64,000 nt of DNA from Escherichia coli (GTDB taxonomy: Bacteria > Pseudomonadota > Gammaproteobacteria > Enterobacterales > Enterobacteriaceae), in assembly GCF_044324785.1 (NCBI RefSeq), contig NZ_CP172127.1. One strand, written 5' to 3'. The position numbers were made by a program, and so were the translations under genes. The notes beneath the pieces were generated by a model, which worked only from the letters and a program-made list of their open reading frames with translations, was not told the DNA's origin and did not search any database. This document shows positions 37,700 to 52,866 of this stretch, in pieces; position 1 is the stretch's first letter; each line of letters opens with the position of its first letter.

Positions 37700-38590
37700 A
37701 TGCGTAAGTTCATTTTCGTATTGCTGACACTGCTTTTGGTCAGCCCTTTTTCCTTTGCGATGAAAGGTATTATCTGGCAACCACAAAACCGTGATAGTCA
37801 GGTTACCGATACCCAGTGGCAGGGGCTGATGAGTCAGTTACGTTTGCAAGGCTTCGATACCCTGGTTTTGCAATGGACCCGTTACGGCGATGCATTCACC
37901 CAGCCAGAACAGCGCGCGTTATTGTTTAAGCGTGCCGCAGCTGCGCAACAGGCTGGCCTGAAGCTGATTGTCGGGCTGAACGCCGATCCGGAATTTTTTA
38001 TACACCAGAAACAGTCATCCGCGGCGCTGGAAAGCTATCTTAATCGCCTGCTGGCTGCCGATCTCCAGCAAGCCAGATTATGGAGCGCCGCGCCTGGCGT
38101 AACGCCGGATGGCTGGTACATCAGCGCGGAAATTGACGACCTGAACTGGCGTAGCGAAGCCGCCCGTCAGCCTTTGCTAACATGGTTAAACAACGCGCAG
38201 CGGCTGATTAGCGATGTTTCAGCAAAACCGGTTTATATCAGTAGTTTTTTCGCCGGAAACATGTCGCCCGATGGCTATCGCCAACTGCTGGAACACGTTA
38301 AAGCAACCGGCGTTAATGTCTGGGTACAGGATGGCAGCGGCGTGGATAAACTTACTGCTGAACAGCGTGAACGTTATCTACAGGCCAGCGCCGATTGCCA
38401 AAGCTCCGCCCCAGCAAGCGGCATTGTTTATGAACTGTTTGTCGCCGGCAAAGGCAAAACCTTTACAGCGAAACCGAAACCGGATGCAGAGATCGCCTCG
38501 CTGTTAGCGAAACGTTCCTCTTGCGGTAAAGACACGCTCTATTTCTCTCTGCGCTATTTGCCCGTCGCACACGGCATTCTCGAGTATTAA
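37700..38590 (+). CDS. ybcH: Conserved secreted protein YbcH (DUF4434)
   Basis: 296-aa ORF with signal peptide, starts one base after the nfrA stop; K-12 order nfrA-ybcH-envY. Confidence 0.75.
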   Translation: MRKFIFVLLTLLLVSPFSFAMKGIIWQPQNRDSQVTDTQWQGLMSQLRLQGFDTLVLQWTRYGDAFTQPEQRALLFKRAAAAQQAGLKLIVGLNADPEFFIHQKQSSAALESYLNRLLAADLQQARLWSAAPGVTPDGWYISAEIDDLNWRSEAARQPLLTWLNNAQRLISDVSAKPVYISSFFAGNMSPDGYRQLLEHVKATGVNVWVQDGSGVDKLTAEQRERYLQASADCQSSAPASGIVYELFVAGKGKTFTAKPKPDAEIASLLAKRSSCGKDTLYFSLRYLPVAHGILEY

Positions 38591-38600
38591 ATCCCTTCCA

Positions 38601-38627
38601 GGTAAGTCGGGTACGACCTGACTTACC
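38601..38627 (+). terminator. Hairpin GGTAAGTCGGGT-ACG-ACCTGACTTACC downstream of ybcH
   Basis: Inverted repeat seen 10 nt after the ybcH stop; weak U-tract. Confidence 0.35.
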
Positions 38628-38772
38628 ACTTTCGCTCTCGTCAGAATTCCATCAAGATTAATTGCTAAAAAGCATGCTAAAGAAAGAAGATCGTTATCGG
38701 CGAACGGGCCGATCACTCATGCAGGAAGCATAGATCCTTTGAGCGGAGTTTCTGATATCTGAGGAGTGCGAA

Positions 38773-39534
38773 ATGCAATTGAGCAGCAGTGAACCTTGCG
38801 TGGTGATCCTGACCGAAAAAGAGGTAGAGGTAAGCGTTAATAACCATGCCACGTTTACCCTTCCGAAAAATTACCTGGCCGCCTTCGCGTGCAACAATAA
38901 CGTCATTGAACTCTCAACGTTAAATCACGTATTAATCACCCACATCAACCGCAACATCATCAACGATTATCTGTTGTTTTTAAATAAGAACTTAACCTGT
39001 GTAAAGCCCTGGTCGCGGCTGGCTACCCCGGTTATCGCTTGTCATAGCCGTACACCGGAAGTGTTCCGGCTAGCCGCCAACCACAGCAAGCAGCAACCCA
39101 GCAAACCCTGCGAAGCGGAGTTGACGCGCGCATTGCTTTTTACCGTATTGTCTAACTTTCTTGAGCAATCGCGGTTTATTGCCCTACTGATGTATATCTT
39201 ACGCAGCAGCGTCCGCGACAGCGTCTGCCGCATTATTCAAAGCGATATTCAGCATTACTGGAATCTGCGAATTGTCGCCAGTTCGCTATGTTTAAGCCCC
39301 AGCCTGCTCAAAAAGAAATTAAAAAACGAAAATACCAGCTATAGCCAGATTGTCACAGAGTGTCGTATGCGTTACGCCGTACAGATGTTATTGATGGATA
39401 ACAAAAATATCACTCAGGTAGCGCAATTATGTGGCTATAGCAGCACGTCGTACTTTATCTCTGTTTTTAAGGCGTTTTACGGCCTGACACCGTTGAATTA
39501 TCTCGCCAAACAGCGACAAAAAGTGATGTGGTGA
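38773..39534 (+). CDS. envY: AraC-family porin thermoregulatory transcriptional regulator EnvY
   Basis: 253-aa ORF with C-terminal AraC-type HTH; recognised as EnvY. Confidence 0.8.
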   Translation: MQLSSSEPCVVILTEKEVEVSVNNHATFTLPKNYLAAFACNNNVIELSTLNHVLITHINRNIINDYLLFLNKNLTCVKPWSRLATPVIACHSRTPEVFRLAANHSKQQPSKPCEAELTRALLFTVLSNFLEQSRFIALLMYILRSSVRDSVCRIIQSDIQHYWNLRIVASSLCLSPSLLKKKLKNENTSYSQIVTECRMRYAVQMLLMDNKNITQVAQLCGYSSTSYFISVFKAFYGLTPLNYLAKQRQKVMW

Positions 39535-39579
39535 AGGGCAAAGCGGAAACGGATAAGACGGGCATAAATGAAGAAGAAA

Positions 39580-39624
39580 TGGCGCGCCCTGCAGGATTCG
39601 AACCTGCGGCCCACGACTTAGAAG
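39580..39624 (-). tRNA. argU: 3'-terminal 45 nt of tRNA-Arg(UCU) argU (anticodon loop through CCA): prophage attachment-site remnant (attR-like), not a complete tRNA
   Basis: Reverse complement reads CTTCTAAGTCGTGGGCCGCAGGTTCGAATCCTGCAGGGCGCGCCA, matching the 3' part of argU as I recall it; upstream sequence does not continue the tRNA. Confidence 0.7.
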
Positions 39625-40046
39625 TTCCTAGAACGACATTTTAAGTCAACAACTTACCGCGCCATCTCTGCGCTCACACGTCCCACTACCTCAAAACATG
39701 TAAAGCCTTGCAAGCCATTGTGAGGCCTTATGTGTCTCAGTTTTGTCCCTCTTTTTTGTACCAAAAAACATAGCAATTGAGGATAAACCTCATGCTATTT
39801 TCGCTTATATGCCTCTAAAGGCATGGCGCTTAAATAGATAAAAACACCACAAAAGCATAAAAAACCACACAGTAAAACCGCAACATAAAACAATAACAGA
39901 TAATTAAACCAAAAACAGATAGCGCATTGTGATAATCATTCAATACTAAACAAAATATAAACAGTGGAGCAATATGTAATTGACTCATTAAGTTAGATAT
40001 AAAAAATACATATTCAATCATTAAAACGATTGAATGGAGAACTTTT

Positions 40047-41000
40047 ATGCGGGCGAAACTTCTGGGAATAGTCCTGACAACCCCTATTGCGATCAGCTCT
40101 TTTGCTTCTACCGAGACTATATCGTTTACTCCTGACAACATAAATGCGGACATTAGTCTTGGAACTCTGAGCGGAAAAACAAAAGAGCGCGTTTATCTAG
40201 CTGAAGAAGGAGGCCGAAAAGTCAGTCAACTCGACTGGAAATTCAATAACGCTGCAATTATTAAAGGTGCAATTAATTGGGATTTGATGCCCCAGATATC
40301 TATTGGGGCTGCGGGCTGGACTACTCTCGGCAGCCGGGGTGGCAATATGGTCGATCAGGACTGGATGGATTCCAGTAACCCCGGAACCTGGACAGATGAA
40401 AGTAGGCACCCTGATACACAACTCAATTATGCTAACGAATTTGATCTGAATATCAAAGGCTGGCTCCTCAACGAACCCAATTACCGCCTGGGACTCATGG
40501 CCGGATATCAGGAAAGCCGTTATAGCTTTACAGCCAGAGGTGGTTCCTATATCTACAGTTCTGAGGAGGGATTCAGAGATGATATCGGCTCCTTCCCGAA
40601 TGGAGAAAGAGCAATCGGCTACAAACAACGTTTTAAAATGCCCTACATTGGCTTGACTGGAAGTTATCGTTATGAAGATTTTGAACTCGGTGGCACATTT
40701 AAATACAGCGGCTGGGTGGAATCATCTGATAACGATGAACACTATGACCCGGGAAAAAGAATCACTTATCGCAGTAAGGTCAAAGACCAAAATTACTATT
40801 CTGTTGCAGTCAATGCAGGTTATTACGTAACACCTAACGCAAAAGTTTATGTTGAAGGCGCATGGAATCGGGTTACGAATAAAAAAGGTAATACTTCACT
40901 TTATGATCACAATGATAACACTTCAGACTACAGCAAAAATGGTGCAGGCATAGAAAACTATAACTTCATCACTACTGCTGGTCTTAAGTACACCTTTTAA
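40047..41000 (+). CDS. ompT: Outer-membrane protease OmpT (omptin family)
   Basis: 317-aa ORF MRAKLLGIVLTTPIAISSFA...; recognised as OmpT. Confidence 0.9.
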   Translation: MRAKLLGIVLTTPIAISSFASTETISFTPDNINADISLGTLSGKTKERVYLAEEGGRKVSQLDWKFNNAAIIKGAINWDLMPQISIGAAGWTTLGSRGGNMVDQDWMDSSNPGTWTDESRHPDTQLNYANEFDLNIKGWLLNEPNYRLGLMAGYQESRYSFTARGGSYIYSSEEGFRDDIGSFPNGERAIGYKQRFKMPYIGLTGSYRYEDFELGGTFKYSGWVESSDNDEHYDPGKRITYRSKVKDQNYYSVAVNAGYYVTPNAKVYVEGAWNRVTNKKGNTSLYDHNDNTSDYSKNGAGIENYNFITTAGLKYTF

Positions 41001-41230: not shown

Positions 41231-41899
41231 ATGGTGAAATTGATGAAAAAAAACACAGATGATGGGGCTAAAATTTACACACCACTTACCCTAAAGCTTT
41301 ATGACTGGTGGGTTTTGGGAGTATCAAATCGGCTTGCATGGGGATGTCCTACAAAGGAACACCTTCTTCCACACTTTCTGGAACATTTAGGTAACAACCA
41401 TCTGGATATTGGTGTTGGAACTGGGTTTTACCTTACTCACGTACCTGAGAGTAGTCTGATATCTTTAATGGATTTGAACGAAGCTAGCCTGAACGCGGCA
41501 TCTACAAGGGCTGGGGAATCAAAAATTAAACATAAAATTAGCCATGATGTTTTTGAACCTTATCCCGCGGCGTTACATGGCCAATTTGATTCCATTTCCA
41601 TGTTTTACCTTCTTCACTGCCTGCCTGGAAATATATCTACAAAAAGCTGTGTAATACGCAATGCGGCGCAGGCCTTAACTGACGATGGAACTCTATACGG
41701 AGCCACAATTCTTGGCGATGGAGTTGTGCACAATAGCTTCGGTCAAAAACTGATGCGCATTTACAATCAGAAAGGCATCTTTTCAAACACAAAAGATTCC
41801 GAAGAAGGCTTAACACATATACTCTCAGAGCATTTCGAGAATGTTAAAACCAAGGTTCAAGGTACTGTAGTAATGTTTTCCGCTTCAGGGAAAAAATAG
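41231..41899 (+). CDS. Class I SAM-dependent methyltransferase (intact counterpart of the K-12 DLP12 ybcY pseudogene, by position)
   Basis: 222-aa ORF with glycine-rich SAM-binding motif DIGVGTGFY; ybcY assignment is from context only. Confidence 0.55.
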   Translation: MVKLMKKNTDDGAKIYTPLTLKLYDWWVLGVSNRLAWGCPTKEHLLPHFLEHLGNNHLDIGVGTGFYLTHVPESSLISLMDLNEASLNAASTRAGESKIKHKISHDVFEPYPAALHGQFDSISMFYLLHCLPGNISTKSCVIRNAAQALTDDGTLYGATILGDGVVHNSFGQKLMRIYNQKGIFSNTKDSEEGLTHILSEHFENVKTKVQGTVVMFSASGKK

Positions 41900-42403
41900 C
41901 ATCCAACCGCAGCACGTTCTTGCATACGCCGTGTCTGCGGTTTAATTTTCACTCTCAAATATTGTAGTTAAGTACAATCATGATTCTTTGGACTATATAA
42001 ATTTTCTTGTAATTAGTTCTTTAGCCGAAATTTTAAAACAATTATTTATTCAAGGGATGGACTCTATTAGGAACTATCTCAAAAACATGAATAACCACCA
42101 TCTTACGATTGAATTATTTTACAGAGTATTCTTATTGAGAAAAACAACAGCAGGTACACCAAATAATATAGAAATGTAAATTTAGGTTCATTAATCTTTT
42201 GAGTTACAACCTAAACTTTCCGTTAATCACTAAGATATCAATAGATTATACTCACTGAGCGCACGTTTTTTACAATTATTATTTCTCACATCAAAATGCG
42301 CATACCAATCTGTTATTTGACACTTTCTTATTTGTTACTAGAGTTAATTGGGTGCTGACAAGGCACATGTTATTTACAATTTGAAAATCAGAGGAGAAAT
42401 GAT

Positions 42404-42586
42404 ATGACCGAACATCGTGGCGGTGCAGGTAATTTCGCTGAAGATCGACAAAAAGCTTCTGACGCTGGTCGTAAAGGCGGCCAACATAGTGGCGGTAATT
42501 TTAAAAACGATCCACAAAGAGCATCAGAAGCAGGGAAAAAAGGTGGTCAGAATAGCCATGGTGGCGGCCGTAAATCTGACTCTTAA
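42404..42586 (+). CDS. KGG-repeat general stress protein (YciG/YmdF family)
   Basis: 60-aa ORF with repeated RKGGQ.SGGNF / KKGGQNSHGG motifs. Confidence 0.6.
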   Translation: MTEHRGGAGNFAEDRQKASDAGRKGGQHSGGNFKNDPQRASEAGKKGGQNSHGGGRKSDS

Positions 42587-42616
42587 TTTATTACCCCCTA
42601 CATTCGTGAATAACTG

Positions 42617-42638
42617 AAGCTAACTGCGAGCCTACGGG
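42617..42638 (+). promoter_or_regulatory. Intercistronic hairpin (CTGCGAGCC-TAC-GGGCTCGCAG) between the yciG-like and yciF-like genes
   Basis: Perfect 9-bp inverted repeat seen in sequence; no U-tract, so more likely an mRNA-stabilising or processing structure than a terminator. Confidence 0.4.
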
Positions 42639-42658
42639 CTCGCAGTGAAAACTCTGGA

Positions 42659-43165
42659 GTGATTATGCAAATTAAATCTGTTGAAGATATCTTCATCCAC
42701 TTATTATCGGATACATACAGCGCTGAGAAACAACTAACAAAGGCACTGTCTAAACTTAGTCGCTCTGCATATAGTGATAAATTAACCGCTGCTTTTCAGT
42801 CACATCTTGATGAGACACATGGTCAAATTGAACGCATCGATCAGGTTGTTGATTCTGAAGATGGTCTTAAATTGAAAAGAATTAAGTGTGCCGCAATGGA
42901 AGGACTTATCGAAGAGGCGAATGAGGTAATTGAAAGCACTGATAAAAATGAAGTACGTGATGCAGCATTGATTGCTGCAGCACAAAAAGTAGAGCACTAT
43001 GAAATTGCCAGTTATGGCACTTTGGTAACACTCGCTGAGCAATTAGGATATAAAAAAGCGGCTAAACTCCTGAAAGAAACACTGGAAGAGGAAAAAGCTA
43101 CTGATGTCAAATTAACAGATCTGGCATTTAATAACGTTAATAAAAAAGCTCAGGATAACTCCTGA
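42659..43165 (+). CDS. Ferritin-like DUF892 protein (YciF-like)
   Basis: 168-aa ORF containing SVEDIFIHLLSDTYSAEKQLTKAL, resembling YciF. Confidence 0.65.
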   Translation: MIMQIKSVEDIFIHLLSDTYSAEKQLTKALSKLSRSAYSDKLTAAFQSHLDETHGQIERIDQVVDSEDGLKLKRIKCAAMEGLIEEANEVIESTDKNEVRDAALIAAAQKVEHYEIASYGTLVTLAEQLGYKKAAKLLKETLEEEKATDVKLTDLAFNNVNKKAQDNS

Positions 43166-43201
43166 ACTATAGACTTCAATTTCTTTTAGGATAAACAGAT
43201 T

Positions 43202-43708
43202 ATGAATAGAATTGAACATTACCATGACTGGCTTCGTGATGCACATGCGATGGAGAAACAAGCTGAAAAAATGCTTGAGTCTATGGCCAGCCGGATAGAA
43301 AACTATCCAGAGTTACGTTCCAGAATTGAGCAGCACATTAGCGAAACAAAGAACCAGCTTTCACAGCTTGAAAGCATACTTGATCGTAATAATATTTCGC
43401 GCTCTGTCATTAAAGACTCTATGAGTCAAATGGCCGCGTTTGGGCAATCCATTGGTGGAATTTTTCCATCTGATGAAATTGTCAAAGGTTCGATCAGTGG
43501 CTATGTGTTCGAACAATTTGAAATTGCGTGTTACACATCTCTTCTCGCAGCAGCCAAAAATGCGGGTGATACAGCCTCAGTACCCATTATTGAAGCAATT
43601 CTTAATGAAGAAAAACAAATGGCTGAATGGCTTCTTAACCATATTCCTGACACCACTGAACAATTCATGGTCAGATCTGAAATTGATGGAGTTGAAGCCA
43701 AAAAATAA
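43202..43708 (+). CDS. Ferritin-like DUF892 protein (YciE-like)
   Basis: 168-aa ORF paralogous to the upstream gene (WLRDAHAMEKQAEKMLE...); same operon. Confidence 0.65.
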   Translation: MNRIEHYHDWLRDAHAMEKQAEKMLESMASRIENYPELRSRIEQHISETKNQLSQLESILDRNNISRSVIKDSMSQMAAFGQSIGGIFPSDEIVKGSISGYVFEQFEIACYTSLLAAAKNAGDTASVPIIEAILNEEKQMAEWLLNHIPDTTEQFMVRSEIDGVEAKK

Positions 43709-43726
43709 TTCTTTTGAGGAGGCATT

Positions 43727-44617
43727 ATGTTTAGACACGTGAAAAAACTTCAATATACAGTACGTGTAAGTGAGCCAAACCCAGGCTTGGCTAATCTACT
43801 TTTAGAACAATTCGGCGGGCCACAGGGTGAGCTTGCAGCAGCATGCCGATACTTCACTCAAGGCTTAAGTGATGAAGATGCAGGCCGAAGGGATATGCTG
43901 ATGGACATAGCAACAGAAGAACTAAGTCATCTCGAAATTATTGGTTCTCTTGTTGGTATGCTCAACAAAGGTGCAAAAGGAGCACTTGCTGAAGGAACTG
44001 AGAATGAAGCTGAGCTTTACCGTTCCTTAACTCAAAATGGCAATGACAGCCATATAACTTCTCTCCTCTACGGAGGAGGCCCAGCATTAACTAATTCAGC
44101 TGGAGTACCCTGGACTGCAGCTTATGTTGATACTATTGGCGAAGTCACGGCCGATCTTCGTTCAAATATTGCAGCTGAAGCTCGGGCAAAGATCATTTAC
44201 GAACGTCTCATTAATGTTACTGATGATCCTGGAGTAAAAGACACTCTGGCATTTTTAATGACCAGGGAAGCAGCACACATGCTTTCATTTGAAAAAGCAT
44301 TACATTCAATTCGTAACACCTTTCCACCAGGGAAATTACCACCAATTGAGAAATACAAAAACGTATATTACAACATGTCAGAAGGTGAAGACGTCAGAGG
44401 TAGTTGGAACAGTGATGAAAACTTTGACTATGTTTCCGATCCAGTTCCAGCGGTTGACGGTGGGGATGGGAAGGCCTCGATAAATCTTTCGACCAAGCAA
44501 GAAGCTATGATAAAAGCTATGGCAACAAGGTTGAAATCCCATGAAGACATCAATCCTGTCACTGGCGCTGAGCTTGCTGAAGGAGAACCACAAACAAAGA
44601 TAAATAGTAAAAACTAA
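43727..44617 (+). CDS. Non-haem manganese catalase (KatN-like)
   Basis: 296-aa ORF with Mn-catalase-like segments (EELSHLEIIG, ARAKIIYERLI, REAAHMLSFEKAL); operon structure mirrors Salmonella yciGFE-katN. Confidence 0.65.
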   Translation: MFRHVKKLQYTVRVSEPNPGLANLLLEQFGGPQGELAAACRYFTQGLSDEDAGRRDMLMDIATEELSHLEIIGSLVGMLNKGAKGALAEGTENEAELYRSLTQNGNDSHITSLLYGGGPALTNSAGVPWTAAYVDTIGEVTADLRSNIAAEARAKIIYERLINVTDDPGVKDTLAFLMTREAAHMLSFEKALHSIRNTFPPGKLPPIEKYKNVYYNMSEGEDVRGSWNSDENFDYVSDPVPAVDGGDGKASINLSTKQEAMIKAMATRLKSHEDINPVTGAELAEGEPQTKINSKN

Positions 44618-44736: not shown

Positions 44737-45318
44737 TTAAACTTCTGGTATTACAGGCCACTCAATATCAGGTGCAGTTGATGTATCAACACGGTTCAGC
44801 AACACCCGATACTTCTTCCAGGCTTCCAGCAACGAGTTTTCTTCCTCCGTTGCGATCTCCAGATCTACAGCATCCTGAAGTGGCGCAATATGCTCACTGG
44901 CTACCTGCATCAGGCTGTTTTTTGTTTCTTCCACCTCCCGGATCCGGAACAGTTTTTCTGCTTCTGCATCTTTCACCCAGGCTGTGCCGTTCCACTTCTG
45001 AAACTCCCCTTCCGGCGATAACCAGGTAACATTTTCCGGTAACGGACCGAGTTCAGAAATAAATAACGCGTCCCCTGACGCTACGTCATAAACCGTTTTA
45101 CCCCGATGATCTTCAACGAGATGCCACGATGCCTCATCACTGTTGAAAACAGCCACGAAGCCTGCCGGAATATCTGGCGGTGCAATATCGGTACTGTTTG
45201 CTGGCAGACCTGTATGAGGCGGAATATATGCATCACCTTCACCAATAAATTCATTAGTTCCGGCCAGCAGATTATAAATTTTTATGGTCCGTGGTTGTTC
45301 ACTCATTCTGAATGCCAT
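44737..45318 (-). CDS. tfa: Tail fibre assembly protein Tfa (lambda-type)
   Basis: 193-aa [37 protein letters not shown]..., recognised as lambda Tfa; downstream of stf. Confidence 0.85.
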
Positions 45319-48300
45319 TATGCAAGCCTCACAATATAGTTAAATGCGATGTTTTTGACGGTGTTTTCCGCGTTACCAGCAGCGTTAACGGTGATGGTGT
45401 GTCCATGTGAACCAATTGCAACGGAGTGCGTGTGTGCACCAATACCGACAGTATGTGCATGTGCGCCTGCGCTTGCAGCAGTGCCGGACAGCGAGTGGGT
45501 ATGAGCACCATCTGATGATGTCTTCCCTGCATTACGAGTCTGGCCACTACCGCTTGTTGTGCTCATAATCCCCGCGCTTAGATTTGAAATCGCGGTATAA
45601 CCATTAGGGAAAATGCTCGTGTTCGTGCCACCAAATGCACCGGAACTCTTGTGTTGGTGCGCACCGGCACTATTTGCAGTCCCGCTAATACTATGGGTAT
45701 GCGCCCCGGTGTTATTCGTGGATTTGGTTCCGTAATCAAACGACGATGTGTTTTTCGTCCCCAAATCCGTACTGGATGCGCTGGCGCTGTGGGTGTGCGA
45801 TTTAATGCCGTCCTGTTCCTGAGACAATACGGCCCGACCACTGGCAGGTTTGCCCTTAATCGTCCAGCCACGCATATCAGGGATCACGCCTGACGGATAA
45901 GCGGCTGCAAGTTTCGGGTAAGCAGATTTGTCAAAAGTCTGCCCCTGCATCAGGGCATAACCAGACGGAACGGTATCTGATGGCCACGGGATTGGTGCGC
46001 CGACTGGGTAGCTTTCTGGTGGAAGATTTTTCGAGGTATAAACTTCTGCCCAGTCTTCCTCAAAACCATAACCGTCTCTTGAAGAACGGTAGAACAGACC
46101 ACCATTTCTGTAATGCGCCTTCATCTGCAAGGTCCGGCAACTTCCGACTCCGGTATAGAAGTTAACCAGAATATAGCTGTCGCCAGAGCGGGTGACATTG
46201 TAAGCGCCTGATTCGGCATTCCAGGGAACGCCACCATCCGCATCGGCATATGTATCCGTTGCCCTTCTGGCAAAAGCAGCCACATGCGCGGCGGTTAAAG
46301 TAATATCTTTGGAACCATCAAACTCAACACCAGAAACCAGTCTTGGCGTTTGTAGCTTTGTTGCTGTTAATGCATTACCGTTCAGACTTGCGGACAGTTT
46401 GGTTCCAATAACCAGTTCGCCGGTTGCGTTATCAATAGCAAACGGTCTTAATGTATTCCAGCCACCATAAACATCACCTTGATTGGTAAGCAGCAGGTAA
46501 GTTTTAGCGCCATCATTACGCCATAATGCACCATACTCCCCACCTATCATTCGAATCTGATTACCACCACGCGCTACAATTTCGTCTGTGGCAAAAAGTT
46601 TTTTGCACGACAAGTTATCGTTAACGATTAACGAATGAGACTCATAAAAACCACGCCCACTCTTAAAATCAAGGATAACGTCCGCCGCGATACATTCAGT
46701 CGCTGGATTTGTTGCCCCAAACTTATAGGTCGTATCATTAACAATGAGATCAGCACCAGGTGCGGATATTGACAGGCCATCTTCGATAAACGCAAAAACA
46801 GGGAAAGCAGCGCCATCAACATAGAACACAGAGCGCAAATCATCGCCCTTATTACTCATCATTATTGAGTGGATGGCTCGTTCATTGTTTTGATATTGCC
46901 AGAACATTCCATAAGCATAACGCCCCCTGTAAGTCCAGCCACCAGGCATAACAAATCCGTTAAACTCGCAGTTATTCATCGGATCGCCTGCGGTTCGCGT
47001 TGCCGTGGTGATAATGACCCTTGATGCCAGTTCGCTTACTGAGCCAGCAGAACGCATAACAACAACAGGGTAATATTTTCCAGATGTTGCACCTGCAGGA
47101 GCGTTAACCAGCACATAACGCATACCACGCTTATCAGCAAAGTCTGTTTTACTGACCGCGTTAATGTTGTTCAGGAAGCGTCCCTTATCGGGTATATCAG
47201 CGCCGTTCTGGTCTTTCTGCAGACGTTTCTCTGCATTGTCATAGGCTGATTTTACTGCCTTTGGCGTTGCCGCCAGCGTTTCAGACGTACTGTTGGTCGC
47301 ACTGCTGAGCTGTACTATCCCCTTTTTCGTCGTGCTCGCATCCTCAAGCGCCACGGCGGATGCAATATCCTCTGCCCGTTTTGCCGCTGTCTCGGCGCGC
47401 GTTGCCGCGGATTCCGCCGTACTTTTGCTCTGTGCTGCCGCCGTCGCACTGCCAGCTGCCTCTGTCGCCTTCGTGGATGCTGTCGTGGCGCTGCCCTTCG
47501 CTGCGGACGCTTGTCTGGTCGCCTCATCTTTTGAAGCAGACGCCGATGATGCCGATGACGCCGCCGAACTGGCGGACGATGCGGCAGCCGTTTTTGAGGA
47601 TTCTGCGCTGGTTTCCGACGCTTTCGCGTTCGTCTCGGATGTCTTCGCTGCGGATGCAGACCTCTCTGCTACCGCAGCCTGTTCAGTGGCTTCGCCAGCC
47701 TTCGTTGTGGCTGCTGAGGCGGCCGATGCTGCGCTTTCTGCCGATTTCCCGGCGGTGGTGGCACTGGCTGCGGCCTCCTCCGCTTTGGCTGACGCCTCTC
47801 GGGCTGATGATGCAGCGGTAGTTTCTGAACCTGCCGCAGCTGAGGCGCTCTGTTCCGCTGCCGTTTCAGAAGACCTGGCGTTTGTCTCGGACGTTTTTGC
47901 CGCCTTCGCAGAATTTGCTGCCGCCGTTGCCGAGGAAGCTGCACTACCGGCGCTTGATAATGCGTTCGTTTCTGATGATTTTGCCGCCTCTTTTGAAGCC
48001 GCCGCATCCCTGGCTGAGGTGGTAGCTTCTGACGCCTTTGTGGTCGCGGTGGATGCAGAAGTGGCTGCTAATTGTTGTGACGCTGCCGCATTCGTTTCTG
48101 ACGTTTTCGCCGCACCGGCACTGGTAGCCGCCGCGCTTTTTGAGGACTCTGCAGCGGCAGCACTTTTTGATGCCTCAGAGGCTTTTGCTGATGCCGTTCC
48201 TGCGCTGGAAAAAGCCTCCTGAGCCGACGTCGCGGCCTGTCCGGCTGACGTGCTGGCTGCGCGTGCTGAGTCTGCAGCATCAGTCGCATGGGTTGCCGCC

Positions 48301-48725
48301 TCACGGGCAGATGTGCTGGCATCGCTGGCTGACTTCTTCGCGGCTGCCGTGTTCTGTGCCACTGCGGACGCGTTACGCGCCACCTCTTCCACCATCAGTT
48401 CAAAACGGCGCAGTGCCTCCGGACGGGCATCCTCCTCCGTCATGGCACCGAGAAAATCATTCAGCGTACCGGGTTGAGAATCTTCATACACGGTGATGGT
48501 CCCGGCATGTGACGGCGGGAAGCCTTCCACCAACAGAATAACGCTGTACTGACCGTACTCAACGTCCATGCTGTAACGCCCGGCTTCATCCGGATTTTCT
48601 GAGGCCAGTGTGTTCACCACCACCGTGGTGCTGTTACGTTTTGCTTTCAGCTGGATTGTGCAGTTCTGTACCGGTTTTCCTGTGCCGTCTTTCAGTACAC
48701 CTGAAATCTTTACTGCCATATTCAC
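45318..48725 (-). CDS. stf: Side tail fibre protein Stf (lambda-type) with long Ala/Ser/Thr-rich repeat region
   Basis: 1135-aa ORF; N-terminus [30 protein letters not shown] matches lambda Stf; ~370 residues of tail-fibre repeats; conserved C-terminal region. Confidence 0.85.
47285..48395 (-). repeat. Low-complexity tail-fibre repeat array within stf
   Basis: Encoded protein is almost entirely A/S/T/E/K repeats; the GC-rich repeats generate long spurious antisense ORFs (e.g. 47293..48222 +). Confidence 0.7.
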
Positions 48726-48727
48726 CC

Positions 48728-48760
48728 CACAAAAAAGCCCGCCAGAACCGGCGGGCTGTC
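48728..48760 (-). terminator. Rho-independent terminator downstream of lom (minus strand)
   Basis: Minus strand reads GCCCGCCGGTTCTGGCGGGC followed by TTTTTTGTGGGG. Confidence 0.6.
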
Positions 48761-48783: not shown

Positions 48784-49383
48784 TCAGAACTTATAACCGA
48801 CGCCCACGATGAAACCGGCAGTGCGCCAGTCGCCACTGCCGGAGCCTTCATAAGCAATATCAATAGCCACGGATTCGGTCGGGTTAAACTGCACGCCAGC
48901 TCCCCACGCCAGAGAGGTGTTACTGTGGCGAGCGTCATCACTTCCGGTCAGCACGTCGTGCGTTTTTCCCTTGTTGTCAGTTACGCGGAGATAATCCCCG
49001 GAAAAAGTCGACACACGGCTGTAAGCCACGCCTGCCATCGCATACGCGCTGAACCATTCATTCACGCGTACAGACGGCCCCGCCATCACGCTGAACCAGC
49101 GGTTACGAACGGAATCTTCATGCCAGCGGGTATCGCTGTAATGGGTCAGCTGGCGATTCTTGTCTCCTGCATAGCTGAAAGACGTCACCATCCCCAGTGT
49201 GTCCGTAAACTCATAACGGTATTTCACGTTAATCCCGTTCAGATCATCGCTGCCGGGAACGTTCGTCGAGACATGAAGATACCCTGCGCTCAGCGTGGAC
49301 TGATGTTCAGACGCCCATGCAGGCGCACCGGATACGGCCAGACAAATGGCTGCGGACAAAATGGCGGCATAAAGTTTACGCAT
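48784..49383 (-). CDS. lom: Outer-membrane protein Lom (Ail/Lom family)
   Basis: 199-aa ORF with signal peptide and beta-barrel pattern, ends with terminal F; position between J and stf as in lambda. Confidence 0.85.
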   Translation of the reverse strand: MRKLYAAILSAAICLAVSGAPAWASEHQSTLSAGYLHVSTNVPGSDDLNGINVKYRYEFTDTLGMVTSFSYAGDKNRQLTHYSDTRWHEDSVRNRWFSVMAGPSVRVNEWFSAYAMAGVAYSRVSTFSGDYLRVTDNKGKTHDVLTGSDDARHSNTSLAWGAGVQFNPTESVAIDIAYEGSGSGDWRTAGFIVGVGYKF

Positions 49384-49407: not shown

Positions 49408-49435
49408 AAAAAAGGCACCATTTCTGGTGCCCTTA
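49408..49435 (-). terminator. Hairpin + U-tract downstream of J (minus strand)
   Basis: Minus strand reads GGCACCAGAAATGGTGCC followed by TTTTTTATT. Confidence 0.5.
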
Positions 49436-49452
49436 TATGTGTTATAACAATT

Positions 49453-52400
49453 TCAACGAATACTGATGCCGGAAGCGGCTTTTTTGGTCACAATCACCGT
49501 ACAGTCGGTGATATTACCTGCCCACTGATTGCCTTTATGGAAAACCTTAAACTCCAGAGTGACGCTTCCCCTGCCACTAGGCATATCAATAACCGCACTG
49601 TAGCTACCGGGAATGGCCCCTTTAGTTTCTCTGGATGCGATTAATACACCGTTTTTGCGAACTTCAAAACCATAACCCGTGTATCTTGTACCTCCCGGGT
49701 TATTACCACTTCCCGGATCGCTATACGCTATTCCGTTAAAGATAATGGGCGGAATAATGATTTGACGGTCAAAGTTATGATCATCGCTGATGGTGACTGT
49801 AACCGTCCCGTTTGGTGTTTCCGTGTTACCCCACGTACCAGCCTGTTTCGGAAATGATTTGGATACAGCTTTAACGAAGTCACCTCTGACCTGAGTCGCC
49901 TCCAGCATGCCCTTAATCGTACAGTTCTGGTTAATCGTGACATTGTTGAGCGTTCCTGAGTTCGCATTCACACTACCACTGATATCCGCATTTTTAGCGG
50001 TCAGCTTTCCGTCTGATGTCAGGGAAAATACCGGAGGACTGCCACCGCTGGTAATGGTGGGGGCTGTCAGGCGCTTCAGGAACACGTCGTTCATGAATAT
50101 CTGGTTGCCCTGCGCCACAAACATCGGCGTTTCATTCCCGTTTGCCGGGTCAATAAACGCGATACGGTTAGCGGCAACCAGAAACTGGCTCAGCTTGCCT
50201 TCCTCCGTGTCCTCCATGCTGAGGCCAATACCCGCGACATAATGTTTGCCGTCTTTGGTCTGCTCAATTTTGACGCCCCACATGGCATTCCATTTATCGT
50301 TAGCGTCCTTCCACTCTTTCGAAAACTCATCCAGTCTGCTGGCGTTATCCTCCGTCAGATCAACTTTTTCCAGCAGCGCTTTACCGAGATGGGATTCGGT
50401 TATCTTGCCTTTGAAAAAATCCAGGTAACCTTCCGCATCATCGCTCGCCCGACCGACGGCCTCCACGAATGCCGATTTGCCAACGGTGTTCACACTGCGG
50501 ATATAAAAGTAATAATCATGGCCCGGTTTGATATTGATACTGGCGGCTATCCAGTACAGCGCCGTACCAAGATAGCGGGCTGTGGTTTCAACCTGCCTGA
50601 TATCGGTAATCCGCTTTTCCGAGAACCAGAACTCAAACTGTACCGTCGGGTCATAAACGGCAAGATGCGGCGTGGCGGTTATCTGAAAATAGCCCGGCGT
50701 CAGCTCAATCCTCGACGGTGCTGCCGGTGCGGCAATCCGGAACGATACCGACGCCGGATCGCCCTGCTGCCCCCACGCATTTACCGCCCGGACTGTCAGC
50801 CTGTAGTTCCCCAGCGCCAGTTGCGTGAAGCGGTATGTGGTTTCCGTCGTCCGGGCCGTGCTGACCAGCCGCTCACTGCCGTCATCCGCTGTTACGGTCA
50901 GACGGAGCAGGAAGCTCACGCCCTTCACCACCTTCGGCGTGTCCCAGCGCGCCAGCACCTGATATTCCCCGCTGTCTGCGGTGACTTCGGCGGTCAGGTG
51001 CTGCACCGCTGGCGGCGTGACACCATTCACCGTGCCGCTCTGGTCGCCGTCAAAGTGCGCCCCGTTATCCACGATGGCTTCTTTTTCCGGTACATGCTGC
51101 ACGGCAGTGATGGCATACGTGCCGTCATCGTTCTCACGGATACTCACACAGCGGAACAGGCGCTGACGCAACGTCGGCAACTTCAGCCCCCACACACTGT
51201 ATTCTGCAACGCCGTCAGGAACCCGGTTCACTTTCACCTTAAGTCCGTCGGTGACGGACTGAACCTCCACGCTGACCGGATTACCACTTCCGTCAACCAG
51301 GCTTATCAGCGTGGTACCGGAGGATGGCAGCGTGATTTCACGGTCGAGCGTCAGCGTCCGGGTCTGGCTGTTCACCGCCAGCACGCGACCACCGGTGCTG
51401 ATACCGGCATAGTCATCATCGCAGATTTCAATGACATCGCCCGGTACATGGCGAAGCCCTTCAGCACCCACGCTGAAATCCACGGTCTGCGTCTCCAGCA
51501 GTTCCGTTTTAATCAGCCACAGCCCGGCGCGGTGTGCCTGCCCCCGGCTGGTACAGCCAAAGGCATCCATCTTCGTGACATTACGACCGTAACGGGCAAT
51601 GGCCTGCGTATCTTCAACAAGCTCTGTCGCCGTCTCCCAGCCGTTGTTCGGGTCAATCCAGTTCACCTCAACGGCATTATGGCGGTCCTTCAGGGCGCTG
51701 AAGCTGTAGCGGAACGGCGCGCCATCATCCGGCATCACCACATTACTGCGGTTATAGGTCCACACCTTATCTGATGGTCGGTCCTGCACGAACGTCAGCG
51801 TCTGCCCGTTCCATACCGGCATACAGCGCATCGCCGAGCAGAAATCACTGAGCACATCCCACGCCTTACGCTGCGTGGTCAGGTAGGCATTACAGGTGAT
51901 GCGCGGCTCCGTGCCGCCAAAACCGTCCGGCACTGACTGGTCGCAGTACTGGCCGATGACATACAGCGCCCATTTATCCACATCCGCCGCACCAAGACGT
52001 TTCCCCATGCCGTAGCGCGGGTGGGTCAGCATATCCCACAGACACCAGGCCGGGTTGTTGCTGTATGCCGGCTTAAACGTTCCGTCACAGATACCGCTGT
52101 ATTGCCGCGTCTGCGGGTTATAGTTCGACGGCACCTGCAGAATGCGCCCGCGAAGATGATAATTACGGCTCACCTGCTGGCTGCCGAACTGCTCCGAGTC
52201 CACCTGCACGCCGACCAGTGCCGTGTTCGGGTAGCACTGTTTCACATCGATGATTTCGGTGTATGACGACCAGAGCGTTTTGTTCTGCAGCTGGTCTGTG
52301 GTGCTGTCCGGCGTCATCCTGCGCATCCGGATATTAAACGGGCGCGGCGGCAGGCTACCCACCACCACCGAGGCCAGATACTGCGAGGTGGTTTTGCCCT

Positions 52401-52866
52401 TAATGGTGATGTCTTTTTCCGTCACCCAGCCACCGTTACGTTGTATCTGAACCAGCAGACGGACTTCCGACGGATTCCTGTCACCCTTTGAGGTGGTTTC
52501 CACCAGTGCCTGTACACCGAAGGTAAAGCGCAGACGGTCGATGTTTGCAGACGTAATGGTGCGGGTGATCGGCGTGTCATATTTCACTTCCGTACCCAGC
52601 ACCGTCTCGGAGCCGGAGGATTCAAACCCCTCCGGCGGTGTCTGCTCCTGCTCACCGGCACGGAACACCACCGTGACACCGGAGATGTTGGTATTCCCCT
52701 CAGTGTCCAGCACCGGCGTACTGTTCAGCAGCACGCTTTTTAATCCATCCACCGGACCTTCAACCGGCCCTTCGCTGATGGCATCGATCACACTCAGCAA
52801 CTGCGTGGACTTCAGGTTGTCCTTCGCTTCGCGCGGGGTATGCCCCTTACTGCTTCCTTTACCCAT
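49453..52866 (-). CDS. J: Tail tip host-specificity protein J (central tail fibre)
   Basis: 1137-aa [40 protein letters not shown]..., recognised as lambda gpJ. Confidence 0.9.

Follow-up and report, generated by a model that had tools for sequence, protein, structure and literature searches.

The Ala/Ser/Thr-rich stretch of the side tail fibre gene stf in the 64,000 nucleotides of Escherichia coli DNA analysed here (the window) very probably encodes the helical, coiled-coil proximal shaft of an ordinary lambda-type side tail fibre, an orthologue of StfR. The repetition of this rod is a structural periodicity of the protein and not a DNA repeat, and the gene is therefore stable. A rod of 50 heptads is the commonest form: it is common and stable and does not amount to an expansion that is unusual or unstable. 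Neither the gene nor its length class nor the nature of its Ala/Ser/Thr-rich shaft is new, all three being familiar from K-12 StfR and the structure of Ur-lambda.

The stf gene, its product and its relatives

The gene order J-lom-stf-tfa, with all four genes on the minus strand, matches that of lambda and is annotated alike in strain A17:

44737..45318, minus strand: tfa, tail fibre assembly chaperone (PF02413, E 1.2e-43; so annotated in A17 and K-12)
45318..48725, minus strand: stf, StfR-type side tail fibre (listed open reading frame, 1135 aa from GTG 48725)
48784..49383, minus strand: lom, Ail/Lom outer-membrane protein, directly upstream of stf (PF06316, E 3e-120; A17 annotation)
49453..52866, minus strand: J, next beyond lom in the lambdoid tail module

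The start of tfa overlaps the stop of stf. The prophage carrying stf is an apparently complete lambdoid prophage beside ompT/envY/nfrA, and no further stf copies that could serve as recombination partners were found within the window. Both the identity of the product as Stf and the 1135-aa open reading frame, as proposed by the first-pass annotation, are borne out by the Pfam domains PF08400 (E 3e-71), PF21446 and PF07484 and by a 93% identity to K-12 Rac StfR (1120 aa) over the full length (1133 aligned positions). The true start is more likely the ATG at 48719, two codons later, which would yield 1133 aa: this start is used by lambda and by the 99.8%-identical RefSeq gene of strain A17, the RefSeq homologue and lambda proteins begin with MAVKISG, and GGGGTG is found directly upstream of the ATG.

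Domain matches and the periodicity analysis described below divide the fibre protein as follows:

48318..48719, minus strand: N-terminal collar/attachment domain, aa 3-136 (PF08400, E 3.1e-71)
47343..48389, minus strand: proximal rod of 50 uninterrupted heptads, aa 113-461 (lag-7 autocorrelation, heptad layout and PSSM tracking)
47250..47321, minus strand: conserved fibre motif [24 protein letters not shown], aa 469-492, where the rod ends and the hinge and distal part begin
46017..47249, minus strand: middle module, aa 493-903, which holds the T4 gp34-like trimerisation domain
46434..46733, minus strand: T4 gp34-like trimerisation domain, aa 665-764 (PF21446, E 3.6e-27; PDB 4uxe/5nxf and 8ju3)
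45321..46016, minus strand: predicted C-terminal receptor-binding tip, aa 904-1135 (collar domain PF07484; His-x-His repeats)

The structure of the Ur-lambda Stf N domain (PDB 9e7m) matches aa 3-96 (E 6.6e-52); in Stf, this domain attaches the fibre at the gpV/gpM junction of the tail (PMC12617516). Mu protein S (PDB 5yvq) matches aa 443-523. The motif at aa 469-492 is kept in lambda, ET729, FACU and K-12, and strain FACU 2024 contains it twice. Towards the distal end, T4 gp34 structures match aa 708-779, and the structure of the T4 gp37 tip (PDB 2xgf) matches the C-terminal 232 residues, aa 904-1135 (E 6.9e-83), His-x-His repeats included. The rod was not matched by any T4 gp34 or gp37 structure in the PDB search. 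T4 fibres are mainly built of beta-structure, and T4 is a myophage to which they are attached differently.

With its N domain, its gene position, its full-length similarity and a tip accompanied by Tfa, the stf product is a lambda-type side tail fibre and the orthologue of the StfR encoded by the Rac element of E. coli K-12. In K-12, tfa also lies immediately downstream, and the N-domain and GIVQLSS anchors of StfR are likewise 356 aa apart, which gives the same 50 heptads. The K-12 protein differs by 13 gap positions and about 7% substitutions, and it sits in a defective element. Ur-lambda Stf (774 aa), represented in lambda PaPa by the separate orf-401 and orf-314, shares the collar domain, the heptad type and register, the GIVQLSS...AVK motif, the gp37-like tip and the gene order. 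Rod residues can be aligned one by one with those of lambda Stf; the identity is 72.5% over the first 404 aligned positions of orf-401 and 69% across the tip for the orf-314 product.

The statement of the first-pass annotation that the protein is longer than its lambda counterpart holds, the difference being 361 residues, of which the array accounts for just 105. The lambda rod is shorter by these 15 heptads, lacking the equivalent of window aa ~302-406. Judged by sequence, most of the remaining extra length is a different, larger middle module: the middle part of lambda Stf comprises ~143 aa, compared to ~410 aa here, and has no match to the gp34-like module. A blastp comparison with the orf-401 and orf-314 products gave no credible lambda counterpart for window aa 495-904; one weak, out-of-register rod match to lambda reaches aa 578.

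Heptad periodicity and predicted fold of the rod

Positions 47285-48395 encode aa 111-481, which consist of 36% Ala, 21% Ser and 12% Thr (69% together). This region had been described as a near-periodic array of ~370 residues. The periodicity is confirmed, while the period is 7 rather than ~15 residues and the strict run spans 349 aa; the final ~20 residues are part of the conserved fibre motif [25 protein letters not shown] and lie outside the array. The lag-7 self-identity is 0.39, compared to 0.20 in shuffles (z ~10), and all lags that are multiples of 7 up to 70 have z values of 7.5-9.9. Lag 15 gives z = 0.1. PSSM tracking places aa 113-461 in one register with no phase break. The heptad consensus is [T/S][A/E]A x [T/S]S A, with Ala at position 3 in 81%, Ala at position 7 in 58% and Ser at position 6 in 60% of cases, which makes the core small and apolar, without the usual Leu/Ile/Val.

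An AF2 model of the monomer features helix at aa 100-314 and 333-458 (residues 6-220 and 239-364 of the modelled segment), with pLDDT values of 76-88 over the first 200 residues and a mean of 68.5, indicating moderate confidence. At aa 315-332, the single helix break, the modelled chain folds back. This is probably an artefact of predicting a monomer, and fold-back-type artefacts have been reported for full-length predictions by the authors of the Ur-lambda study (PMC12617516). Ur-lambda Stf is a trimer on the virion that speeds adsorption via an outer-membrane receptor and binds OmpC; its architecture comprises a proximal coiled coil, a hinge and a distal domain (PMC12617516). In the same study, residues 102-393 were modelled as the proximal coiled coil of the trimeric fibre, a trimeric bundle was resolved by cryo-EM where the rod begins, and the homologous lambda region appeared as a rod in cryo-ET (PMC12617516).

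The extreme composition, the masking of the rod by the BLAST low-complexity filter, the merely moderate AF2 confidence and the name 'PPE-repeat protein' given to one database homologue could all point to a disordered low-complexity linker, or to a non-helical repeat of the PPE-like or beta-structured fibre type, instead of a coiled coil. [quoted passage not shown] The homologue labels 'PPE-repeat protein' and 'short-chain fatty acid transporter' are errors. The exact 7-residue period, the predicted continuous helix and the whole-heptad indels are shared with generic alpha-helical coiled coils. In contrast to their Leu/Ile/Val cores, the core of the rod is almost entirely Ala/Ser; so small a core is unusual in a stable coiled coil and counts against the coiled-coil account.

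In the coiled-coil arrangement that we favour, three chains, each contributing one 50-heptad alpha-helix (aa 113-461), would join in a parallel trimeric coiled coil, with the small residues Ala at positions 3 and 7 in the core and Ser flanking at position 6. We infer the trimeric state and the spacer role from the Ur-lambda structure. At 0.148 nm per residue, 349 residues would produce a rod of ~52 nm. The N-terminal domain would anchor the fibre at the tail collar, and the rod would act as a rigid spacer between the tail and the more distal parts of the fibre (hinge, gp34-like middle module and gp37-like tip); the tip could thereby contact an outer-membrane receptor ahead of engagement by the central fibre J. 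In addition, prophages may use the conserved rod sequence as a homology arm when they swap distal receptor-binding modules. Alignments to other alleles stop at recurrent points within the rod, recombination between lambda and Rac across stf and tfa has been reported (PMC3945230), and the N-terminal part of lambda Stf can carry C-terminal parts of foreign origin (PMC11338833).

Repeat content of the rod DNA and variation in rod length

Tandem Repeats Finder (TRF, minimum score 30) detected nothing in the rod DNA but one short element, the sole true DNA micro-repeat:

47539..47563, minus strand: 9 bp x 2.8 micro-repeat encoding [16 protein letters not shown] (TRF)

The longest exact repeat in the rod DNA measures 12 nt, compared to 12.1 +/- 1.2 in codon shuffles, and the direct-repeat families are at most 41 nt long with identities of 62-85%. 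No higher-order repeat was found at any multiple of 7 residues. We also looked for a super-repeat as the driver of the two 315-bp events described below. The in-phase identity over the whole rod is flat (0.26-0.41; 0.365 at lag 105), the duplicated segment alone revealed no super-repeat (0.33-0.48 at the aa level; 0.38 aa and 0.45 nt at lag 105), and the DNA identity between the junction segments is just 40-51%.

Of 5,426 complete E. coli genomes, 3,575 (about two thirds) match the rod DNA with a coverage of at least 80%. The 47 near-full-coverage matches that were sampled, with 86-94% DNA identity, each align as a single piece without gaps and show no difference in length. The gene has the identical length in the complete genome of strain A17 (99.8%), in many other complete genomes and in phage sequences such as those of mEp332 and ev099. 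Calling the array expanded, as had been done before, is correct with respect to lambda (15 heptads more) and misleading for what is the predominant form. A comparison of copy number across relatives had been suggested as a check, and the equal length in 47 of 47 comes close to the outcome that the first-pass annotation had itself named as speaking against its view. That the extra length arose in assembly, through the collapse or expansion of repeats, is vanishingly improbable. A large number of the homologues in databases are truncated at the end of a contig, indicating that short-read assemblies often break in stf; against this, the same length is found in A17, many complete genomes, both phages and, for the rod, K-12, and the DNA offers no repeat that would be open to mis-assembly.

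Recombinational length variants, which the first-pass annotation had anticipated, do exist, and they are rare, discrete and in nearly every case whole heptads. The ET729 rod is 15 heptads longer owing to a 315-bp tandem duplication, the copies of which are 96% identical; its junction is contiguous in one of the best 25 matches. The shorter lambda-type junction, a 315-bp deletion, occurs in 97 genomes, 96 of them at an identity of at least 99%, and is one nearly clonal allele. Alleles lacking one or four heptads also occur. A 3-aa deletion allele (aligned for P0021) maps to the 9-bp x 2.8 micro-repeat; its anchor spacing, 353 aa, recurs in 5 of 120 close homologues. These 120 are the top matches only, a set skewed in favour of proteins as long as the query. 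In a few alleles, indels of +/-3 aa disrupt the heptad phase, and conservation of the register is not absolute. Among PF08400 proteins with both anchors, the spacing is in the same phase modulo 7 in 18 of 22 (chance 1 in 7), the 22 being diverse representatives from a search chosen for diversity. Heptad runs range from 30 to 349 aa across diverse PF08400 proteins. Rod length would alter only by rare recombination, and the surviving events would nearly always be whole heptads; such gains and losses would keep the coiled-coil register.

The length variants and the coincidence of the micro-repeat with the 3-aa deletion allele could be taken as signs of a hypervariable, contingency-type array, in which frequent copy-number change by slippage or unequal recombination would diversify fibre length and host range. 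This reading is already largely refuted, and we give it very little credence. There are no misalignable head-to-tail copies, exact repeats stay at the codon-shuffle level, copy number is constant in the sampled close relatives, and the two junctions are contiguous once (ET729) and nearly clonal (lambda). The suggestion that the array is prone to slipped-strand events does not stand: the rod has no DNA repeat above chance, and the micro-repeat is its only slippage-type site. For annotation, 'heptad coiled-coil rod' is the appropriate description of the region; 'tandem repeat' and 'variable locus' are not.

In lambda a deletion and in ET729 an independent duplication, located at different places, each comprise exactly 15 heptads (105 aa) with no 105-aa sequence repeat underlying them, resulting in a series of 35, 50 and 65 heptads for lambda, the window and ET729, respectively. 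It is conceivable, albeit doubtful, that rod length is under quantised selection, with persisting indels that are whole heptads and steps of 15 heptads. If so, a preferred step of ~15.5 nm might, for example, preserve how the distal fibre is rotated with respect to the collar, or might alternatively match the depth of host surface layers, and rod length would be a tunable determinant of adsorption. The whole-heptad quantisation and the 35/50/65 series could guide the engineering of Stf chimeras with different reach.

Antisense open reading frames in the rod

Two open reading frames run antisense to the rod:

47293..48222, plus strand: antisense open reading frame of 309 aa, Ala/Val/Ser/Asp-rich and of low complexity (composition by-product)
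47360..47821, plus strand: antisense open reading frame of 153 aa (from the list of open reading frames)

As the first-pass annotation had held, these are by-products of composition and not genes. The GC-rich antisense frames, lambda orf206b included, should accordingly not be called as genes. It is exceedingly unlikely that the 309-aa frame is a real overlapping gene, although it is open for ~300 codons and the lambda RefSeq record carries an equivalent antisense frame, orf206b. Conservation by codon position was set aside as a test; it is uninformative because the antisense frame shares its third codon positions with stf, and such conservation cannot exclude coding. Several observations weigh against a gene. 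The low-complexity product is rich in Ala, Val, Ser and Asp, and the RefSeq records of A17 and K-12 leave the 309-aa frame unannotated. Two of the three antisense frames are open simultaneously: over the 350 codons of the rod they contain 1 and 3 stops, whereas each of them has 34 in the remainder of the gene. Open antisense frames are also found in lambda, K-12, ET729 and FACU, two at a time in every homologue, and their stops vary in number and position. In the GCN, TCN, ACN and AGY codons of the rod, the second position is always C or G, which never places a T first in a codon of the 309-aa antisense frame. The codon counts attribute the openness of the antisense strand to this codon make-up of the rod.

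The side tail fibre gene and its surroundings

The open reading frame that carries the repeats had been identified as the side tail fibre gene stf, an assignment borne out by Pfam matches of its product to PF08400 (prophage tail fibre N-terminal; E 3e-71), PF21446 (T4 gp34 trimerisation domain) and PF07484 (collar), and by the gene order J, lom, stf, tfa, which is that of lambda:

J, 49453..52866, minus strand: tail tip gene
lom, 48784..49383, minus strand: Ail/Lom family match (Pfam)
stf, 45318..48725, minus strand: 1135 aa counted from the first GTG
tfa, 44737..45318, minus strand: Tfa chaperone family match (Pfam)

The RefSeq gene of strain A17 (99.8% identical) and that of lambda start at MAVKISG, two codons downstream of this GTG, and GGGGTG lies just before the ATG at 48719. 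Together, these features suggest that a 1133-aa protein from the ATG is the more likely product.

The tail genes of the prophage look intact, with tape measure, L, J, lom, stf and tfa all present. On the minus strand, lom lies between two GC-rich hairpins that resemble terminators and carry T runs, one between J and lom (49411-49434) and the other between lom and stf (48736-48757), a moron-like layout within the late tail operon. The prophage end adjoins ompT, envY, ybcH and nfrA (37700-41000, A17 context), genes that in K-12 neighbour the defective DLP12 prophage. The plus-strand genes between tfa and ompT (41231-44617) are labelled in A17, at 99.8% identity, as a SAM methyltransferase, a general stress protein and two ferritin-like proteins, and 43727..44617 (plus strand) as a manganese-catalase family protein. 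They resemble a yciGFE-katN-like set and may be either prophage cargo or chromosome.

Heptad periodicity and predicted fold of the rod

The first-pass annotation described 47285-48395, which encodes aa 111-481 of Stf (36% Ala, 21% Ser, 12% Thr), as near-periodic repeats of about 15 residues. The periodicity is strong, but its period is seven residues: lag-7 identity is 0.39 versus 0.20 in shuffles (z ~10) and all multiples of 7 up to 70 score z 7.5-9.9, whereas lag 15 gives z = 0.1. A phase-tracking position-specific score follows one unbroken register through 50 consecutive heptads at aa 113-461 (nt 47343..48389, minus strand; the rod), with the consensus (T/S)(A/E)Ax(T/S)SA and Ala at position 3 in 81%, Ser at position 6 in 60% and Ala at position 7 in 58%. 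The final ~20 residues of the flagged interval are part of a conserved 25-residue fibre motif.

The periodicity of the rod is a property of the protein rather than of the DNA. Even with the threshold at its lowest, Tandem Repeats Finder returned nothing beyond a micro-repeat of 9 bp x 2.8 (47539-47563); direct-repeat families reach at most 41 nt at 62-85% identity, and the longest exact repeat is 12 nt, versus 12.1 ± 1.2 in codon-shuffled versions. In-phase self-similarity is flat over all multiples of 7, and the rod therefore has no higher-order unit.

Along the rod, Stf can be aligned with its lambda counterpart residue by residue. A 2025 study of Ur-lambda describes every side fibre as a trimer: residues 1-91 form an N-terminal collar domain, a flexible linker leads to a proximal coiled-coil domain at 102-393, and a hinge and a distal domain follow. 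In that study cryo-EM showed a trimeric bundle where the rod begins, and the remainder was modelled by fitting AlphaFold3 segments to tomograms (PMC12617516). PDB searches matched aa 3-96 to the Ur-lambda Stf N domain (9e7m, E 7e-52) and aa 904-1135 to the T4 gp37 tip (2xgf, E 7e-83); Mu protein S and T4 gp34 matched more weakly. An AF2 monomer model built from 26 homologues is helical at aa 100-314 and 333-458 (mean pLDDT 68.5); its sole helix break is a fold-back, similar to that reported by the lambda authors for full-length predictions (PMC12617516). On the basis of the lambda alignment, the PDB matches and the AF2 helix, we interpret aa 113-461 as the proximal shaft, a trimeric coiled coil whose trimeric state and spacer role are extrapolated from lambda. 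At the standard value of 0.148 nm per residue, the shaft would be about 52 nm long.

Rod length relative to lambda and across E. coli

Stf is indeed longer than its lambda counterpart, as the first-pass annotation had stated, but the rod contributes just 105 of the 361 extra residues. The anchors EEVARNAS, on the N-domain side, and GIVQLSS, on the fibre-motif side, lie 356 aa apart, whereas in lambda they are separated by 251 aa. The two spacings differ by exactly 15 heptads, and the stretch missing from lambda corresponds roughly to aa 302-406. Most of the remaining extra length lies in the middle part (~410 aa versus ~143 aa), for which the two proteins gave no significant match, and the tip is ~15 aa shorter than that of lambda. 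K-12 Rac StfR (1120 aa) is 93% identical overall, with equal anchor spacing.

The 1158-nt rod region is covered to at least 80% in 3,575 of 5,426 complete E. coli genomes. All 47 near-full-coverage records in an evenly spread sample of 60 match it as a single ungapped piece of identical length, at 86-94% identity, and such matches include K-12 derivatives annotated stfR. Only 97 genomes contain the lambda-type junction; since 96 of these match it at 99% identity or more, it represents one nearly clonal allele. Sequenced phages such as mEp332 and ev099 have a gene of equal length. Judged by these numbers, most rods are of the 50-heptad form and the shorter lambda rod is in the minority, which does not support the reading as an unusual expansion. 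Stf is here a known protein of known length class and known shaft type.

Among the close homologues, some carry wrong source names such as 'short-chain fatty acid transporter' or 'PPE-repeat protein' (P0005, P0014, P0018, P0061). A large proportion are labelled 'partial' where a contig ends, so short-read assemblies often break in multi-copy prophage stf.

Length variants and antisense frames

Variation in rod length is present, yet rare and discrete; reading the rod as an unstable expansion is not supported. The proposed recombinational length variants do exist. Strain ET729 carries a 315-bp tandem duplication (aa 190-294; copies 96% identical) that yields 65 heptads, and a probe for its junction matched contiguously in ET729 alone among the 25 best matches. 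The lambda deletion and this duplication, two independent events, each span exactly 15 heptads, and no 105-aa repeat underlies them; given only two events, the shared size may be coincidence.

Anchor spacing in the 120 closest database proteins equals that of Stf here in 95, is one heptad shorter in 10 and four heptads shorter in one; five have a 3-aa deletion and one a 3-aa insertion. In the one of these five that was aligned, the deletion falls in a 12-residue tract encoded by the 9-bp micro-repeat, the sole spot where slippage is plausible. Diverse PF08400 proteins have anything from no heptad run to one of 349 aa, and 18 of the 22 with both anchors share the same phase modulo 7 (18, 19, 21, 34, 35 and 50 heptads).

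Alignments to other alleles end at recurrent points within the rod, and a role as homology arm for the exchange of distal modules fits. Experiments have demonstrated that lambda and Rac recombine across stf and tfa (PMC3945230), and the N-terminal part of lambda Stf tolerates foreign C-terminal parts (PMC11338833). In E. coli FACU 2024, a 44-aa insertion at the rod end (aligned to aa 462-492) duplicates a 24-residue fibre motif, a length change at the hinge, outside the heptads.

The caution that antisense ORFs here should not be mistaken for genes proved sound. Of the three antisense frames, two are almost free of stops in the rod (1 and 3 in 350 codons), compared with 34 each elsewhere in the gene; GC content is 62% in the rod and 52% in the window. 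Open antisense frames recur in lambda, K-12, ET729 and FACU with differing stop numbers and positions, and RefSeq annotation of A17 and K-12 contains no such ORF. The lambda reference record still lists orf206b, a 206-aa 'hypothetical protein' (NC_001416, 2004-2624, minus strand) encoded opposite the Stf rod; like 47293..48222 in the window, it is a compositional ORF. A 510-aa ORF antisense within J (50242-51774, plus strand) is probably non-coding.
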